Below, piece after piece: positions 20,928 to 51,216 of a DNA stretch of 64,000 nucleotides. The notes under the pieces are model-generated. The model worked only from the letters and a program-made list of their open reading frames with translations, searched no databases and was not told where the DNA came from. How positions within the stretch are numbered: position 1 is the first letter of the stretch; each line of letters starts with the position of its first letter. The position numbers and the translations under genes are program-made. The stretch is from an archaeon (lineage in GTDB: Archaea > Undinarchaeota > Undinarchaeia > Undinarchaeales > JBDRKL01): the NCBI GenBank assembly GCA_043814055.1, contig JBDRKL010000012.1, forward strand, positions 64,001 through 128,000, read 5' to 3'.

Positions 20928-21035
20928 AAGTTTATATCTGCTTGAGTTAATTTAAATGTATGGCAGTACAAAGCATAACAAATTATACCAGCTTTGTACT
21001 AATTTCAAAGCCTGGGAAATTGGTGAAACTTTGAA

Positions 21036-21299
21036 ATGGCAGAGCACGAGAACCTCAAGCAGAAGATAAAGGACATTATTGAGAATGATATTGAGCACAA
21101 ATGGAGAACTTTCAGCCTTGCAGATGTTGTTGAAGAGGCGAAGATACAGGGAATTAGCGAGCACGAGGTTGAGGAGATTATGCACGAGCTCATTGAGGAC
21201 AATTACATTCACGAGGTCCGCGGGGCGCACGAGCTTTATGAGCGGACTGTTTGGAAAGATTACAACCCGGCGAATGAAGAGGGGCCGGATTTTAGCTGA
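21036..21299 (+). CDS. Small winged-helix protein
   Basis: Pattern resembles the C-terminal WH of MCM and RPA in this window; SD GGTGA. Confidence 0.6.
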   Translation: MAEHENLKQKIKDIIENDIEHKWRTFSLADVVEEAKIQGISEHEVEEIMHELIEDNYIHEVRGAHELYERTVWKDYNPANEEGPDFS

Positions 21300-24945: not shown

Positions 24946-26199
24946 ATGAGCAAAATAGCAAACCCAAAACTGGCAGAACAGGGAAGAAAGAAGATTGAAT
25001 GGGCAGAAGCTAGAATGCCTGTAATGATGAAGATTCGCGAGAAATACTCAAAAGAGAAGCCGCTCAAGGGGCAGCGAATCGCAGGATGCCTGCACGTTAC
25101 AAAGGAGACTGCGGTTCTCGTGAAAACTTTGCGTGATGCTGGAGCTGAGATTGCGTGGAGTGGATGCAACCCGCTGAGCACCCAGGATGATATCGCGGCA
25201 GCGCTCGCTGAGGAGGAAAATGTTGAGATTTTCGCGTGGCACGGGCAGAACACTGAGGAGTTTTACTGGAGCATTGAGCAGTGCCTTGAGTTCAAGCCGA
25301 CCTTGACTTTGGACGATGGGGCTGACTTGATATTCACAGTGCACAACAAGCACCCAGAACTTGCTGACGGGATTATTGGCGGAAGCGAGGAAACAACCAC
25401 AGGAGTTCACAGGCTTAGGGCGATGTCTGATGCAGGGAAGCTCTTGTATCCGGTTATTGCAGTGAATGATGCAGAGACCAAATGGGACTTTGATAATGTT
25501 TACGGCACAGGGCAGAGCTCGCTTGACGGAATTTTGAGGGCGACTAATGTTCTGCTTGCTGGAAAGACTTTTGTGGTTGCAGGGTACGGGCACTGCGGCA
25601 AGGGCTGCGGAATGCGCACAAAGGGAATGGGCTGCAATGTTATTGCAACTGAGGTTGACCCAATACAGGCGCTCAAGGCAACTCTTGAGGGAATTAGGGT
25701 GATGAAGATGGATGACGCCGCAAAGGTCGGGGATATTTTCATAACCGCGACCGGAGTCAAGGACATTATTAGGAGGAATCATTTTGAGGTAATGAAGGAC
25801 GGTGCGATTGTGTGCAACACCGGGCACTATGACTGCGAGATAAACATTCCTGAGCTGGACTCGCTGGCCAAGAGCAAGAGGACCATAAGAGACAATTGCG
25901 AGGAATATACAATGAAAGACGGCAGAAGGATTTATCTGCTTGCACAAGGCAGGCTTGTCAATCTTGCGGCAGCTGAGGGGCACCCAAGCGAAGTTATGGA
26001 CATGAGCTTTGCGAACCAGTTCAACGCGATGATGCAGCTGGCAAAGGAAGGAAAAACCATGGGCAAAAAGGTCTATGACACTACCAAGGAGCAGGACCAG
26101 GAAATAGCCGGAGTGAAGCTAAGCACAATGGGCATTGAAATAGACAAGCTCACAAAGGAACAGGAAGCGTATCTCACGGATTACAGCATGGGGACATAG
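24946..26199 (+). CDS. ahcY: S-adenosylhomocysteine hydrolase
   Basis: CLHVTKETA, CNPLSTQD, EETTTG, FDNVYGTGQS, GRLVNL..GHP. Confidence 0.96.
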   Translation: MSKIANPKLAEQGRKKIEWAEARMPVMMKIREKYSKEKPLKGQRIAGCLHVTKETAVLVKTLRDAGAEIAWSGCNPLSTQDDIAAALAEEENVEIFAWHGQNTEEFYWSIEQCLEFKPTLTLDDGADLIFTVHNKHPELADGIIGGSEETTTGVHRLRAMSDAGKLLYPVIAVNDAETKWDFDNVYGTGQSSLDGILRATNVLLAGKTFVVAGYGHCGKGCGMRTKGMGCNVIATEVDPIQALKATLEGIRVMKMDDAAKVGDIFITATGVKDIIRRNHFEVMKDGAIVCNTGHYDCEINIPELDSLAKSKRTIRDNCEEYTMKDGRRIYLLAQGRLVNLAAAEGHPSEVMDMSFANQFNAMMQLAKEGKTMGKKVYDTTKEQDQEIAGVKLSTMGIEIDKLTKEQEAYLTDYSMGT

Positions 26200-26220
26200 A
26201 AAAGGTTCATAGGATGAGAT

Positions 26221-26266
26221 AACCCCTTTATAAAGAGAACCCTTTATATACCCCCTTACTTATATA
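26221..26266 (+). promoter_or_regulatory. Three tandem TATA-like boxes upstream of tbp
   Basis: CCCTTTATAAA, CCCTTTATATA and CTTATATA about 16-17 nt apart. Confidence 0.5.
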
Positions 26267-26318
26267 GTACTTCCCCGCGATGGAGGGGGCTAAATTTTAG
26301 TCATGAGGTGGTAATTGA

Positions 26319-26428
26319 ATGGCACCCAGCCCCTGAAGTTGGGGACTGGGTGTATTTCGAAGCGGCGGAAGTCGCTTCAAAAAAAAGAGGGAGGGAAATG
26401 CGGCATTTAATGCCGCTTCGAAATGGCA
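26319..26428 (+). promoter_or_regulatory. uORF plus double-hairpin leader of tbp, flanked by AATGGCA repeats
   Basis: SD GAGGTG then ATG at 26319 (MAPSP*); 13-bp stem ATTTCGAAGCGGC/GCCGCTTCGAAAT covers the tbp ATG. Confidence 0.6.
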
Positions 26429-27064
26429 AAAAAAACAACAAAAAAAAGTACAACAAAACCTGTTAAAAAACAGGTTATTAAGAAATCTAAGACAACAAAA
26501 CCTGTTAAAAGACAATTTATTAAGAAACCCAAGGTTAAGATTGAGAACGTGGTTGCGTCCGCTTCTGTGGATGCCGAAATAGACTTGGACAAAATTGCTG
26601 CAACGCTTCCGAATGCTGAGTATGAGCCGGAGCAGTTCCCAGGGCTTGTCCTAAGACTTACTGACCCCAAAGCCGCAATACTGGTCTTTTCCTCAGGAAA
26701 GATGGTCTGCACAGGCGCAAAAGAAGTAGCTATGATTAAGGTGGCAATAGACAAGACCATCAAGCAGATAAAGACAACCGGAACCAAGGTTAGGGGGGAG
26801 GCAACCATAACTGTGCAGAATATTGTGGCAAGCTCTGACCTAGGCGTAGAGCTCAACCTGGACAAGATTGCTTTCTCGCTTCAGAACGCTGAGTTTGAGC
26901 CAGAGCAGTTTCCCGGGCTCGTGTTCCGCGTGTTTGACCCTAAAGTGGTGTTCCTGCTGTTCAGGTCTGGGAAGATAGTGTGCACTGGCGCAAAGAAGAA
27001 GATTGATGTTGAGCGCGGAGTCGCAAAGCTGATACAAGAACTCAAAAAGATAAAGGCGCTTTGA
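26423..27064 (+). CDS. tbp: TATA-box binding protein with Lys-rich N-terminal extension
   Basis: Two TBP repeats: IENVVAS..EYEPEQFPGL..FSSGKMVCTG and VQNIVAS..EPEQFPGL..FRSGKIVCTG. Confidence 0.97.
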   Translation: MAKKTTKKSTTKPVKKQVIKKSKTTKPVKRQFIKKPKVKIENVVASASVDAEIDLDKIAATLPNAEYEPEQFPGLVLRLTDPKAAILVFSSGKMVCTGAKEVAMIKVAIDKTIKQIKTTGTKVRGEATITVQNIVASSDLGVELNLDKIAFSLQNAEFEPEQFPGLVFRVFDPKVVFLLFRSGKIVCTGAKKKIDVERGVAKLIQELKKIKAL

Positions 27065-27086: not shown

Positions 27087-29123
27087 ATGGAGAGAGATCC
27101 AATAGAACGATTTGAGGAATTTTTCCGAGAGAAATACTACGACGACCTACTGAAGGTTGCGCGTGAATACCCTGACAAGAAATCTCTTGTCGTGGACTAC
27201 GCGGAGCTGGACAAGCACGATGTTGAGCTGGCTGATCTGCTTCTCAAGGACCCAGAGGAGACCTTCAAGATTGCCAAGGACGCCCTGATGGAGATTGACC
27301 TCCCTATTGAGGGAATCTACAGTATAAATGTGCGCTTCAAGAACTTGCCGAGCTCCCAGAACATAAATATCCGCGACGTCAGGTCAGAGCACATAGACCA
27401 CCTCATAACGCTTGAAGGGCTTGTGAAGAGTGCGGCGGACGTGAGGCCTGAGGCGATTAGGGTTGTGTATGAATGCCCAGACTGCAAGAAGGAAATTGTT
27501 GTGGCACAGGGCGGGAAGAAGCTCAAGACCCCGTTTATGTGTGATGACCCGCAATGCGCCAGGAAAGGGCGGTTCAAACTGCTCAGGGCAGATTTGATTG
27601 ACACGCAGAGCATAAAGATACAGGAGCCCCCTGAGACGATTATCGGCGGGGAGCAGCCATCACAGCTTTACTCACAGCTCAGTGAGGATTTGGTTTCACC
27701 TTTTGAGAGGAAGAAGTCGCTGCCTGGAAACAGGGTCAAAATAACCGGAATTCTCAGGAAGAGGGCAACGCACACGACTGCCGGCGCGCCCACCACAAGA
27801 TTTGACTTGTATCTTGAAGCAAACCACATTGAGACTATTGAGCGCGAGTTTTCAGAGATAGAGCTGAGCAACAAGGATATTGAGGATATAAAGAAATTGT
27901 CAAAGGACAAGAAGCTTTACAAGAAGTTTGTTGATTCGCTTGCACCTTCCATCCAGGGTTATGAGGATGTGAAGGAGGCCATATTGCTGCAATTGTTCGG
28001 CGGGGTTCCTAAGATTCAGCCGGACGGAACCAGAATTAGGGAAAATATTCACTTGTTCCTTGTTGGTGACCCAGCTGTTGGTAAGTCACAGCTGCTAAGG
28101 TATGTTGCTGAGTTGTCGCCAAAGGGCAGGTTTGTCTCTGGGCGAAAAGCGTCAGGGGTTGGTTTGACAGCAGCGGTTGTGCGCGATGAATTTGCCGGCG
28201 GCTGGACCCTTGAAGCAGGCGCGCTTATCCTTGCAAACAATGGAGTGGCTGCTGTTGACGAGTTTGACAAGATGGATGACGACGACAGGAGCGCTATGCT
28301 GGAAGCCATGGAGCAGGGGACGATTTCCATTGCCAAGGCAGGGATTGTAACAACGCTCAGGGCGAACACAACTGTGCTTGCTGCAGCGAATCCAAAGTAT
28401 GGAAGGTTTGACTTGTACAGGCCGCTACCTGACCAGATTGACTTGTCTCCGGTTATACTGAGCAGGTTTGACGTAAAGTTTCTGATACAGGACACGCCAG
28501 GCAGGGAAGCGGACGAGAAACTCGCTGATCACATTCTTAATTCGTTTATTTCTCCAAAAACTGTTGAGCCCGTGATAAAGGGGGAGTTCATCAGGAAGTA
28601 TGTTGCTTACGCAAAGACACATTGCAAGCCAAAGATGACAAGGGAAGCACAAAAAATCATAAAGGACTTCTATGTGACTTGGAGGGGAAAACACGGCGGC
28701 GGGGACAGCGGGGACAACAAAGTTGCGCTTACTCCGAGGCAACTGGAAGCGCTTGTGCGAATGTCAGAAGCATCTGCCAAGGTGCGGCTTGCTGATAAGG
28801 TTACTGTTGAGGATGCGAGGCGCGGCACAAGGTTGCTTGAGTTCTCGCTGAGGCAGCTTGGCACTGAGCCTGAGACAGGGCAGATTGACATTGACAGGAT
28901 AGAGGCGGGCACTAGTTCAATGCAGAGAAGCAAGATTTACACCATGCTCACAATTATTGAGGAGATTACAAAGGACGTTGGCAAGAATGTTCCGGTTGAG
29001 GATATCCTGAAAGAGGCAAAAGACCGCGGCATAGAGGAGCTCGCGGCGCTTGAGCTTATTGGAAAATTAAAGGAGAAAGGTGATTTGTTTGAGCCAAAAC
29101 CGGGCTACCTCCAAAAAGCGTAA
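27087..29123 (+). CDS. mcm: MCM replicative helicase
   Basis: Zn finger, GDPAVGKSQ, VDEFDKM, AANPKYGRFD, SRFD, C-terminal WH; no intein. Confidence 0.97.
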   Translation: MERDPIERFEEFFREKYYDDLLKVAREYPDKKSLVVDYAELDKHDVELADLLLKDPEETFKIAKDALMEIDLPIEGIYSINVRFKNLPSSQNINIRDVRSEHIDHLITLEGLVKSAADVRPEAIRVVYECPDCKKEIVVAQGGKKLKTPFMCDDPQCARKGRFKLLRADLIDTQSIKIQEPPETIIGGEQPSQLYSQLSEDLVSPFERKKSLPGNRVKITGILRKRATHTTAGAPTTRFDLYLEANHIETIEREFSEIELSNKDIEDIKKLSKDKKLYKKFVDSLAPSIQGYEDVKEAILLQLFGGVPKIQPDGTRIRENIHLFLVGDPAVGKSQLLRYVAELSPKGRFVSGRKASGVGLTAAVVRDEFAGGWTLEAGALILANNGVAAVDEFDKMDDDDRSAMLEAMEQGTISIAKAGIVTTLRANTTVLAAANPKYGRFDLYRPLPDQIDLSPVILSRFDVKFLIQDTPGREADEKLADHILNSFISPKTVEPVIKGEFIRKYVAYAKTHCKPKMTREAQKIIKDFYVTWRGKHGGGDSGDNKVALTPRQLEALVRMSEASAKVRLADKVTVEDARRGTRLLEFSLRQLGTEPETGQIDIDRIEAGTSSMQRSKIYTMLTIIEEITKDVGKNVPVEDILKEAKDRGIEELAALELIGKLKEKGDLFEPKPGYLQKA

Positions 29124-31595: not shown

Positions 31596-31659
31596 ATGAG
31601 ACACACATTGGAGAAAGTTGTTACGTGTGTTCATCAACATCGGAGGCGATGTTGATGGA
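31596..31659 (+). promoter_or_regulatory. uORF/double-hairpin leader module before kinase
   Basis: ATGAGACAC...GTGTT stem 1; 13-bp stem 2 with GAGG loop covering both candidate ATGs; uORF stop overlaps ATG (TGATG). Confidence 0.55.
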
Positions 31660-33274: not shown

Positions 33275-33275
33275 G

Positions 33276-33352
33276 ATGAGACACAAAGCAAAAAATTTGT
33301 TAAGCAACTTCATTGTGTTCAAAGCAGGTAAAGGGGGTGAAACTTTGAAATG
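33276..33352 (+). repeat. Leader/uORF module copy 1 (before top6B)
   Basis: 31/36 nt identical to 35098-35133; uORF MRHKAKNLLSNFIVFKAGKGGETLKWQEK* (33276-33365). Confidence 0.75.
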
Positions 33353-35101
33353 GCAGGAGAAATAACAGCAGAAGCATTATTCAAGGAATTCCAGAGCGTT
33401 CAATTGAGCGAGTTCTTTAGGAAGAATAGGCAGTTTCTTGGCTATGTTGGAAAAATAAAGTCACTCACTACGGTTATTCACGAGCTTGTTACTAATTCAT
33501 TAGACGCGTGCGAGGAAGCGGGCATACTGCCTGACCTTCGGGTTATTGTTGAAGAGCTTGGAGTTGAGCATTACAAGATTACTTGCCAGGACAACGGACC
33601 AGGAATCCCGGAAACACATCTGGAAAAAGTTTTCGGGCAATTACTCACAGGGACTAAATTTCACAGGAATATTCAACTCAGAGGACAGCAGGGGCTTGGT
33701 GTCAGCGGAGCAGTGCTGTTCTCACAGATCACTACTGGCCAGCCGAGCAGGATAAAATCAGGAACAGGCAAAGGCACAGTTGTTGATGCCATGATTGAGA
33801 TGGATATCAAGACGAACTCGCCAAAGATAATTTCAAAAAATGTTGAGCACGATTCCTGGAGGGGAACGCGCGTGGAAAGCGAATTCAAGGGGGTCCAATA
33901 CTCAAAGGGCTCTAAAGGGCCGTTTGAATATGTCAGGTGGACCGCTGCCTCAAATCCACACGCGAAAATTTACTTCAAGGACCCTGCGGGCAGTGAGATT
34001 GTGTTTGAGAGGGTTATTGACAAGATTCCGCAGACACCAAAGGAGATAAAGCCGCACCCGGAGGGGCTTGAGGCGCACGACCTGCTTGACCTAGCGCACA
34101 AGTCAACGGCAAGGCAGGTTTCAACGTTCCTGACCACAGAGCTCGCTCGAGTGAGCTCGCAGAAGGTCACGGAGATGGAAGACATAATCAACAAGGACAT
34201 GATTAGGGATTACTTGGTAGCTGCTGGAATTTCAAAGGAATCTGCTGAGACGCAAGCTGCTAGCATAACCCCTAAAGAGTGGACTGAGAAGCACGCGGAT
34301 AAGCCGCTCTTTGACACCCGCAGAAGCCCGAAGAGGATTGAGTGGAAAGACGCTGAACATCTCGTGAATGCTTTCAAGAAAACCAAGTTTATGGCGCCGC
34401 CGAGTTCTGGATTAATTCCAATTGGGCAGAAAACTGTTGAGAAGGCGCTAACAAATCTGCTCGCGCCTGACTTTGTTGAGGCAATCACACGAAACCCCAC
34501 AGTTTACAAAGGCGGAATTCCGTTCATGGTTGAGGCTGCGATTGCATACGGCGGAAACTCAGGGAGAGAAGGAGCAGAAGGCGGGAGAAAAGTTGAATTG
34601 ATGAGATTCGCAAACCGCGCTCCACTATTGTTTGACGCAGGCGGCTGCGCTTTAAACAAGTCAATGGAGTCAATTGACTGGAAGAGATACCACATAATGG
34701 ATATGGACCACGCGCCGGTGACTGTTTTCATAAATCTCGTATCAACGCACGTACCTTACACATCCGCAGGGAAGCAGGCGATTGCAGAGGAGGACGAGGT
34801 TGTGGCAGAGGTGCGGTTCGCGCTGATGCAGATAGCAAGAACACTTCAAAAGTTCTTGTCCGGAAAGAGGCGGGCTTCAGAGAGGAACGCGAAGAAAAAG
34901 CTGTTTGAAAAATATATCCCAGAGACCGCGAAGGCGATATCAAAGCTCAGCGGCGCAAAAGAAGAGGACCTGCGCAAGAATCTTGAGAAAATCGTTCTTG
35001 ACCGGTTTGGAAAGGAATTCGCCGGCGGCGAGCCAGAGGAAGAAGAGACCGCTGCGTATGAGGAGATTCCTGAAGAGATTGAAGAGGAGGCGGAAGAATG
35101 A
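33350..35101 (+). CDS. top6B: DNA topoisomerase VI subunit B
   Basis: EFFRKN, HELVTNSLDACE, DNGPGI, RGQQGLG, RFANRAPL, VPYTSAGK. Confidence 0.96.
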   Translation: MAGEITAEALFKEFQSVQLSEFFRKNRQFLGYVGKIKSLTTVIHELVTNSLDACEEAGILPDLRVIVEELGVEHYKITCQDNGPGIPETHLEKVFGQLLTGTKFHRNIQLRGQQGLGVSGAVLFSQITTGQPSRIKSGTGKGTVVDAMIEMDIKTNSPKIISKNVEHDSWRGTRVESEFKGVQYSKGSKGPFEYVRWTAASNPHAKIYFKDPAGSEIVFERVIDKIPQTPKEIKPHPEGLEAHDLLDLAHKSTARQVSTFLTTELARVSSQKVTEMEDIINKDMIRDYLVAAGISKESAETQAASITPKEWTEKHADKPLFDTRRSPKRIEWKDAEHLVNAFKKTKFMAPPSSGLIPIGQKTVEKALTNLLAPDFVEAITRNPTVYKGGIPFMVEAAIAYGGNSGREGAEGGRKVELMRFANRAPLLFDAGGCALNKSMESIDWKRYHIMDMDHAPVTVFINLVSTHVPYTSAGKQAIAEEDEVVAEVRFALMQIARTLQKFLSGKRRASERNAKKKLFEKYIPETAKAISKLSGAKEEDLRKNLEKIVLDRFGKEFAGGEPEEEETAAYEEIPEEIEEEAEE

Positions 35102-35176
35102 GACGCAAAGTAAGAAATTTGAAAAGCAACTTCGCGTTTATTTCAAACCTGATGCAGGCGGGGAGGGTTTGAAATG
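35098..35176 (+). repeat. Leader/uORF module copy 2 (before top6A)
   Basis: Homologous to 33276; uORF MRRKVRNLKSNFAFISNLMQAGRV* (35098-35172). Confidence 0.75.
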
Positions 35177-51015: not shown

Positions 51016-51202
51016 GGATCCGTAGCCTAGTCTGGATAAGGCGACAGCCTTCTAACAACCGCAAAATCGGTTGACGCTTTGGGTCGCATTCCGCTTCGCG
51101 GAAGCGACCCGGCTCGCGCGTTCGCACGCGCTCGCTCGGTCAATTCGAGCAAGTTGGTTGGAAGCCAGCTGTAAATCAGGGGTTCAAATCCCCTCGGATC
51201 CA
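51016..51202 (+). tRNA. tRNA-Arg(TCT) with 112-nt 37/38 intron (51055-51166)
   Basis: GGATCCG/CGGATCC acceptor; ACAGC-CTTCTA[intron]A-GCTGT; canonical BHB CTTC/GAAG with 3-nt bulges. Confidence 0.95.
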
Positions 51203-51216
51203 CTCAAACCTAAAAT

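Follow-up and report, generated by a model that had tools for sequence, protein, structure and literature searches.

The structured leader of an undinarchaeal tbp gene read as a diverged copy of a two-hairpin repeat found at start codons

The locus analyzed here raises the question of why the gene for the TATA-binding protein (tbp) of an archaeon should start 104 nt behind a Shine-Dalgarno (SD) sequence and start codon that seem made for it, in a leader that folds as if it were a switch. A sequence-only reading of the same DNA had proposed either a two-state translational switch or an excisable insert. Our comparisons support an insert and point to its origin. The segment from 26322 or 26325 to 26425 or 26428 probably belongs to a protein-less, lineage-specific family of two-hairpin DNA repeats; it would be a diverged copy that reached the start codon of tbp by insertion. 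Coordinates refer to the window, which is the whole 64,000-nt stretch of DNA analyzed (C12:64001-128000 of G000, a genome of 0.98 Mb in 14 contigs and 82% complete); coordinates with another prefix give the contig or locus.

The tbp leader and its counterparts in relatives

The leader is bracketed by an AdoHcyase gene (24946..26199) and tbp (26423..27064), with an MCM gene (27087..29123) downstream of tbp. Its features, all on the plus strand, are as follows.

26227..26267, +, three TATA-like boxes read from the sequence: TTTATAAA (26227-34), TTTATATA (26243-50) and TTATATAG (26260-67)
26305..26310, +, SD GAGGTG, by its sequence ancestral for tbp; a comparable SD is found in 10/12 relatives
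26318..26324, +, left copy of the direct repeat AATGGCA, which includes the ancestral start codon (26319-21)
26319-26336, +, upstream open reading frame (uORF) ATG GCA CCC AGC CCC TGA (5 codons), opened by the ancestral start codon
26322..26353, +, hairpin A, predicted by folding, in which 26322-26333 pairs with 26341-26353 with one bulged A; aligns with hairpin A of the repeat family
26354..26366, +, hairpin B 5' arm ATTTCGAAGCGGC, able to pair with either 3' arm
26367..26387, +, GGAA loop, first (degenerate) 3' arm GTCGCTTC and a run of eight A; with 26359-66 it forms local hairpin 2
26388..26396, +, internal SD-like GAGGGAGGG, counterpart of the SD in the hairpin B loop of family copies
26400..26416, +, hairpin 3 (GCGGCA-TTTAA-TGCCGC), letters GCGGCATTTAATGCCGC; also in sister copy e2
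26412..26428, +, second 3' arm GCCGCTTCGAAAT (26412-26424), overlapping the right AATGGCA and the working tbp start codon (26423-25)
26422-26428, +, right copy of AATGGCA, 104 nt from the left copy and overlapping the tbp start (26423-25)
26423..27064, +, tbp (Pfam TBP, E 2.2e-62), the only TBP match in G000

The three TATA-like boxes are presumed from their sequence to be the tbp promoter, and the motif cctttatatacccccttatata also precedes tbp in relatives. The usual archaeal distance from TATA box to transcription start is about 26 nt and, when it is applied to these boxes, transcription of tbp would begin near 26290, upstream of the insert. All letters and coordinates given in the sequence-only reading are correct. 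GAGGTG lies 8 nt 5' of the ATG at 26319, which that reading took to be served by the best SD (MAPSP*) in place of tbp. The AATGGCA that it noted at both ATGs, 104 nt apart, is present at 26318-26324 and 26422-26428, and its expectation that removal of the insert would set tbp directly behind the SD also holds, as deletion of 26325-26428 gives GAGGTGGTAATTGAATGGCAAAAAAAA. Deleting the block in this way restores SD-N8-ATGGCAAAAAAA, the layout seen in relatives.

To look for empty sites, we retrieved tbp in each of the 12 remaining genomes of the order, and the 104-nt block is in none of these loci (0/12). In 10 of the 12, GGAGG, GAGGTG or GGGAGG stands 5-9 nt before a tbp start of the form ATGGCA or ATGCC, with TATA boxes upstream; the remaining two (L041 and L044) have other long tbp leaders without an SD. 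A DNA search with the 115-nt leader gave no full-length match among 60 other genomes. Relative to all relatives examined, the block between the AATGGCA copies is an insertion. The leader in L044 (1426-1512, genome G009) is a different two-hairpin structure of its own, ending AAACTTTTTGCGAAAAAGTTT-ATG before tbp.

The only public run found to contain the leader, X1, is a DNA run (share 0.06) and shows the filled site, with no empty-site joint among its contigs; among public RNA runs, none is listed as containing the locus. One 151-nt contig is 98% identical to 26303-26425 (2 substitutions and 1 extra A), and the only tbp-coding contig of the run is 88% identical over 26507-26643, with differences mostly at third codon positions. 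These contigs reflect either two organisms or an unusually conserved leader, the coverage being too thin to tell. If both came from one organism, the leader would be under strong constraint, which would argue for function over neutral junk.

A family of two-hairpin repeats at start codons

A second copy of the element (e2, C6:70695-70792) is 76% identical to the tbp copy (e1), with which it shares the terminal TTYGAAATGRCA. A TATA box precedes it by about 25 nt, and at its end stands TTTGAAATGACA, whose ATG starts an RHH gene. A profile built from e1 and e2 finds three further copies, e3 (C4:16815-16881, E 2.9e-7), e4 (C9:52778-52839, E 9.5e-5) and e5 (C4:23509-23593, E 3e-4). A larger family was exposed by scanning every ATG for upstream letters that pair to an earlier 11-mer. 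Its canonical layout consists of a left half, AATG-(A/G)GACACAAAGC, a loop of about 16 nt and GCTT(C/T)GTGT(T/G), and a right half, (C/T)ATTTCAAAGC, a 16-nt loop with GGAGG and (A/G)CTTTGAAATG. Twenty-five canonical copies make up alignment A3, nhmmer finds 33 copies in G000, and a covariance model (R1) gives 35 matches at E<=0.01 in the same genome, with units of 65-85 nt that together occupy about 0.3% of it. In 16 other genomes of the phylum R1 has no real match, the single one (in G011) being an A/T-rich false positive.

The five copies recovered from the tbp side score 36 (e5), 35.7 (e4), 27.5 (e3), 21.3 (e1, E 0.048) and 17.7 bits (e2) in unfiltered R1 searches. Because e1 matches R1 weakly (E 0.048), its place in the family is argued from the intermediates e3-e5 and from collinearity. 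R1 aligns 26318-26384 of e1 as one whole unit, and in alignment A4 all copies are collinear, with e1 and e2 longer than the others by 35-45 nt within the loop of hairpin B. Sequence comparison thereby places the tbp block as a diverged member of a two-hairpin repeat family that occurs at start codons all over the genome. The extended loop is restricted to e1 and e2, both of which stand ahead of genes for DNA-binding proteins, and this could be a hint of shared regulation.

Beginning directly behind the left ATG and reaching to the right ATG, the unit is made up of two hairpins that abut, separated by one free base or none. Across the family, hairpins A and B are 81.4% paired against 77.7% in shuffled alignments, a value reached by 0/500 shuffles, and controls slid along the alignment are 25-48% paired. 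Eleven pairs have changed on both sides; the covariation lies in hairpin A (8/10 pairs), and hairpin B shows hardly any variation. In 20/25 canonical copies it is the complementary strand that folds better, and two frequent A.C mismatches would be G.U pairs on that opposite strand, for which reasons the hairpins may be important as DNA rather than as mRNA. A reading of the inverted repeats as operators for a transcription factor was rejected, as the stems covary and the loops range from 4 to 51 nt.

The copies are placed with respect to genes in a consistent manner. The left flank is an ATG after a normal SD, and 27 of the 33 tabulated copies end in an ATG that opens an ORF of at least 47 codons. 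Pfam places RIO kinase, Topo VI A and Topo VI B among the downstream genes; one more is an EF-2-like ORF, and others we take, by eye from their N-terminal translations, to be transketolase halves, NDK and PyrI. In eight copies the TGA of the upstream gene overlaps the left ATG as ATGA, a classic coupled junction. The small frame opened by the left ATG stops at -4 (TGAaATG) in 10, at +1 (ATGA) in 7 and at +13 in 1 of the 18 canonical ATG-to-ATG copies, e3 and e4 being left out of these counts, and it is in frame with the gene in 0/18; in 17 of the 18 the spacing is thus that of translational coupling. Five frame-0 copies have ATC or ATA in place of the left ATG, or an early stop. We rejected the idea that the small frames encode a peptide, since the copies use two different frames with unrelated peptides. 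The flanking repeats measure 3-9 nt and in 6 of 20 readable copies (e4 left out) extend 3-4 nt beyond the ATG; the extension is always GCA or ACA, matching the left end of the element, RCAC.

The EF-2 locus offers a second comparison of filled and empty sites. The element is found in 0/11 relatives, 9 of which have an upstream stop, 5-10 nt and then the start (ATGGCACG), which is the ancestral junction, and in G000 AAATGGCAC stands on both sides of the element. The letters ATGGCAC are seen at the left end of the EF-2 copy and also of an FKBP-like copy. At this locus one relative (L219, G005) has a palindromic spacer of about 95 nt between the upstream ORF and EF-2.

Within the window there are three further canonical copies, at 20959-21038, 33275-33352 and 35097-35176 (R1 64.7, 56.4 and 83.1 bits), followed in that order by an 87-aa ORF that Pfam does not match and by the genes for subunits B and A of Topo VI. 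Variant units were also seen. One sub-family copy (31597-31657) reads ATGAGACACACATTGG...ACGTGTGTT, then CATCAACATCG-GAGG-CGATGTTGATG, and its last ATG starts the RIO-domain gene; similar copies are at C12:46259 and C1:7655. Composite copies of 134 nt (C10:26384-26517 and C11:6812-6945) have a palindrome, CACAATGAAACTCCAG...CTGGAGATTCATTGTG, nested between hairpins A and B. Hairpins with the conserved loop of e2-e4, ACCTTnnAnTTGGTTA, adjoin tRNA-Ser(GGA) (L054, C10:117072-117185) and tRNA-Cys (L055, C10:18644-18741), each flanked by letters of the tRNA acceptor end, with three occurrences of GCCGAGG ahead of tRNA-Ser. About 165 nt upstream of the 23S rRNA 5' end lies a short unit of two hairpins that has no ATG (L064, C12:12376-12407, minus strand).

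Beyond this genome, a pattern scan of metagenomes returned 95 loci and, among the 80 fetched, only L171 is a true family member. There, positions 18-97 carry a 16-nt flanking repeat, GAAATGAACACACAAA, at the start of a gene that we take, from its sequence alone, to be L19e-like. The first codons of this gene themselves resemble the left arm of the element. A tblastn search of G000 for an L19e ortholog, which would have given an empty site to set beside L171, found none. About 50 of the fetched loci (within L105-L184, on OMLO... and Ga0126337... contigs) carry an unrelated, highly repeated element, aataagccatttccgagttcgctcgagcctct-ATTTCAAAGCGAGTCTAAGTGCGAAGTCTTTGAAATG-aaaatgag, that shares the search pattern by chance, and most of the others are chance palindromes. 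A pattern scan of genome contigs gave one match, in a Fodinibius contig, judged to be chance.

Folding, translation and spread

The arms of the tbp copy are ATTTCGAAGCGGC (26354-26366) and its exact reverse complement GCCGCTTCGAAAT (26412-26424), and the 13-bp stem that they can form includes the first two letters of the tbp ATG (26423-26425), as the sequence-only reading had proposed. The segment 26290-26440 folds at -58.6 kcal/mol, against -36.1 +/- 3.4 for 200 shuffled sequences (z = -6.65), none of which is as stable. Constrained folding yields three competing states. In RNA that begins at 26319, the energy is lowest (-52.3) when the 13-bp long-range stem forms, and a state of two local hairpins with a free AUG is 4.1 kcal/mol worse (-48.2), so that the competition it described between this stem and two local hairpins is borne out. 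One of the local hairpins is GAAGCGGC-GGAA-GTCGCTTC at 26359-26378, with one G.T pair. If the RNA begins at 26290 instead, the best state is a third one (-58.6), in which the upstream SD and the ATG of the uORF are paired with 26403-26428. The tbp AUG is mostly paired across all favored folds in these calculations, and GAGGGAGGG, a feature that the sequence-only reading did not list, is predicted to be unpaired, with P 0.85-0.99 at 7 of its 9 bases and about 0.5 at the last two.

Such folding invites the view that the leader is a co-opted translational switch or brake, in which TBP synthesis depends on the opening of the ATG-burying stem by temperature, by a protein or by ribosomes on the uORF. 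It would fit the presence of three low-energy folds that exclude one another and differ by no more than about 7 kcal/mol, the unusual stability of the whole, and the pairing of the start codon in the most stable folds while the internal SD is exposed; hairpin 3 and the SD-hairpin-ATG layout are kept in e2, and the 98%-identical contig of X1 may indicate conservation. Set against this, the minimum-energy fold of e2 is the open state, its long stem containing a U.U mismatch. The alternative helix in the family (the 3' arm of A with the 5' arm of B) is 76% paired, which is not above shuffles (89/500 reach it). The uORF ends 89 nt before the ATG, which is too far for coupling. Compared with what marks a riboswitch or conserved leader RNA, the block is present in 0/12 orthologous tbp leaders, the alternative helix does not exceed shuffles, and Rfam gives no match at E<0.09 over 26100-26600, chance-level hits only; 11 other copies likewise yield only chance-level Rfam matches, besides genuine tRNA and 23S. 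There is instead a simple origin for the competing folds. As the extra loop piece of the tbp copy includes a second 3' arm, one 5' arm (26354-66) has two possible partners, and the switch-like hairpins would thus be a by-product of the duplicated 3' arm. These observations lend no support to the two-state switch of the sequence-only reading as a designed device, and we regard even a co-opted switch or brake as unlikely. No evidence of a trigger for switching was seen by folding or sequence comparison.

The diverged-repeat reading also suggests how genes may live with the element. In the family layout the original SD-ATG is followed by hairpin A. Hairpin B comes next; its loop carries an SD and its 3' arm contains the new ATG. 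In canonical copies, ribosomes could load at the original SD-ATG, translate about 24 codons across both hairpins and melt hairpin B in doing so, terminate at -4 or +1 and reinitiate at the new ATG, aided by the loop SD. Such a relay would make the insertion nearly harmless, and it agrees with what a review says of mycobacterial interspersed repetitive units, or MIRUs (PMC12548453). The same review describes little translational coupling beyond about 30 nt (PMC12548453).

At tbp the coupled frame of the family has been lost. The old SD and ATGGCA on the left would open a dead-end frame of five codons whose TGA sits in the hairpin A loop, and the right ATGGCA would be the working start. Because this frame ends at 26336, at -89 relative to the tbp ATG, the tbp copy could not relay ribosomes, and tbp would therefore have to initiate directly at 26423. 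The only plausible SD for this is probably the element's own GAGGGAGGG. It lies 26 nt from the ATG in linear sequence, and hairpin 26400-26416, if formed, would draw it to about 9 nt; e2 keeps this SD-hairpin-ATG arrangement. Initiation by this route would face a start codon that is mostly base paired, and a passive structural brake on tbp translation is possible.

How the family has spread must be judged from where the copies lie. Searches of the G000 assembly (82% complete) gave no match to Y1_Tnp (PF01797), only a 16.5-bit match to TnpB (PF07282), below the cut-off, and detected no tyrosine recombinase, reverse transcriptase, Cas1 or DDE_Tnp_1; Phage_integrase (XerA-type) had no match in this 82%-complete assembly, the control having found that family in 14/14 reference genomes. 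Because no mobilizing enzyme was found, it is the distribution of the copies that suggests mobility. Flanking repeats of variable length (3-9 nt), GCA/ACA microhomology at the second codon and the lack of a transposase lead us to favor copying by the host's replication or repair, through homology or annealing, rather than the action of a classical transposase. A bolder version would see in the family a new type of mobile DNA that encodes no protein. In circular or tandem form, the two abutting hairpins would make a dumbbell with AAATG in its stem, which could anneal through CATTT/AATGRCA to start regions and be copied by the host, leaving flanking repeats of variable length, with the tbp copy later co-opted as a structural gate. 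We consider this full combination improbable.

Transfer in single-stranded form, with a Y1 transposase acting in trans, as for palindrome-associated elements (PATEs) of the IS200/IS605 type, appears less probable still. Two hairpins do span the element from end to end with no terminal inverted repeats, the insertion adjoins a short constant motif, (A)ATG, with a 5' arm (CATTT) complementary to the target AAATG, and the better folding of the complementary strand would also suit such a route; yet no Y1_Tnp and no TnpB above cut-off was found in the 82%-complete assembly, and flanking repeats of 3-9 nt that run 3-4 nt past the ATG in 6/20 copies are unexpected for IS200/IS605. A miniature inverted-repeat element (MITE) was considered and rejected, as the ends (RCAC.../...GAAATG) are not inverted copies but each pair inward, the duplication varies from 3 to 9 nt and DDE_Tnp_1 has no match.

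It could also be proposed that the element is a promoter-carrying cassette, with tbp transcribed from inside it and the hairpins never in the mRNA. The hairpin A loops of canonical copies are indeed A/T-rich, but three good TATA boxes common to relatives lie upstream (26227-26267) and e1 has no comparable TATA box inside it, which leaves this proposal with a small chance. Weakest is the excisable insert, in which the 104 nt would be removed from DNA (between the AATGGCA repeats) or from RNA (as an intron) to restore SD-ATG-tbp: perfect 7-nt direct repeats at both edges, recreation of the ancestral leader upon removal and the many large tRNA introns of this genome speak for it, but no fold, inspected by eye, has both junctions in 3-nt bulges flanking a 4-bp helix as in the archaeal bulge-helix-bulge, the left junction pairing inside hairpin A, the right inside hairpin B and the downstream A-run having no partner, no recombinase was detected, and the one public contig that crosses the site carries the insert and shows no joint, so that of this earlier proposal the insert stands and its excision is very improbable.

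ARAGORN in intron mode reports many tRNA genes with large introns (25-193 nt), such as C6:51029-51297 and window 51016-51203. One in-window tRNA is read with the anticodon CTA and a 95-nt intron; it is absent from the no-intron scan and may be a miscall.

Comparison with known repeat systems

Two known systems resemble single aspects of the family. Rickettsia palindromic elements (Ogata 2000, as listed in PMC3184786) are reportedly palindromic selfish repeats translated in frame within proteins. Both they and the present repeats are palindromic, selfish and tolerated inside expressed regions of a reduced genome, but the Rickettsia elements are in frame, whereas here 0/18 ATG-to-ATG copies are. 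A split SD with a bridging hairpin is known from phage T4 genes 38 and 25. In e1 and e2 an SD-like motif is similarly split from the ATG by a 17-nt hairpin that is predicted to restore the spacing, with the difference that here the arrangement arises inside a repeat.

In the literature searched, no archaeal report of such start-codon repeats was found, and the main text of the Undinarchaeota genome paper makes no mention of repeats, introns or transposition. By analogy, the closest known systems are bacterial, namely MIRUs and the Neisseria REP2 and Borrelia IR repeats. The latter two carry a promoter too (Morelle 2003 and Dunn 1994, via PMC3184786), and REP2 marks a co-regulated gene set (PMC3184786). 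The genes downstream of the present family, in contrast, are unrelated housekeeping genes.

The likeness to MIRUs (Supply et al. 1997, via PMC12548453, PMC3184786) is much broader. Each family has tens of short copies (40-100 bp) that lie at start codons and run in the direction of the gene; in each, a small frame is coupled to the gene at -4 spacing, there are empty and filled sites, short direct repeats and internal inverted repeats, and no protein is encoded. They differ in that the host here is an archaeon, in that +1 (ATGA) is almost as common as -4, and in flanking repeats of 3-9 nt against the tetranucleotides of MIRUs; moreover, the tbp copy has lost the coupled frame. At tbp itself we find the start-codon site, gene orientation, empty sites and flanking repeats of a MIRU, and not its -4 coupling. 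The likeness is one of working like a MIRU rather than of being a member of that family.

In conclusion, the structure of the tbp leader is probably that of a repeat copy much like a MIRU and not of a purpose-built RNA switch. A selfish repeat can, on this evidence, occupy the translation start of an essential single-copy gene for a general transcription factor in an archaeal genome of about 1 Mb, and such repeats would stay tolerable by carrying their own SD and ATG and relaying ribosomes. For annotation, the true start of about 30 genes would lie some 80 nt downstream of a well-placed SD-ATG. With no transposase detectable, the family prompts one to ask by what means such DNA spreads, and it would extend a MIRU-like lifestyle to the archaea.
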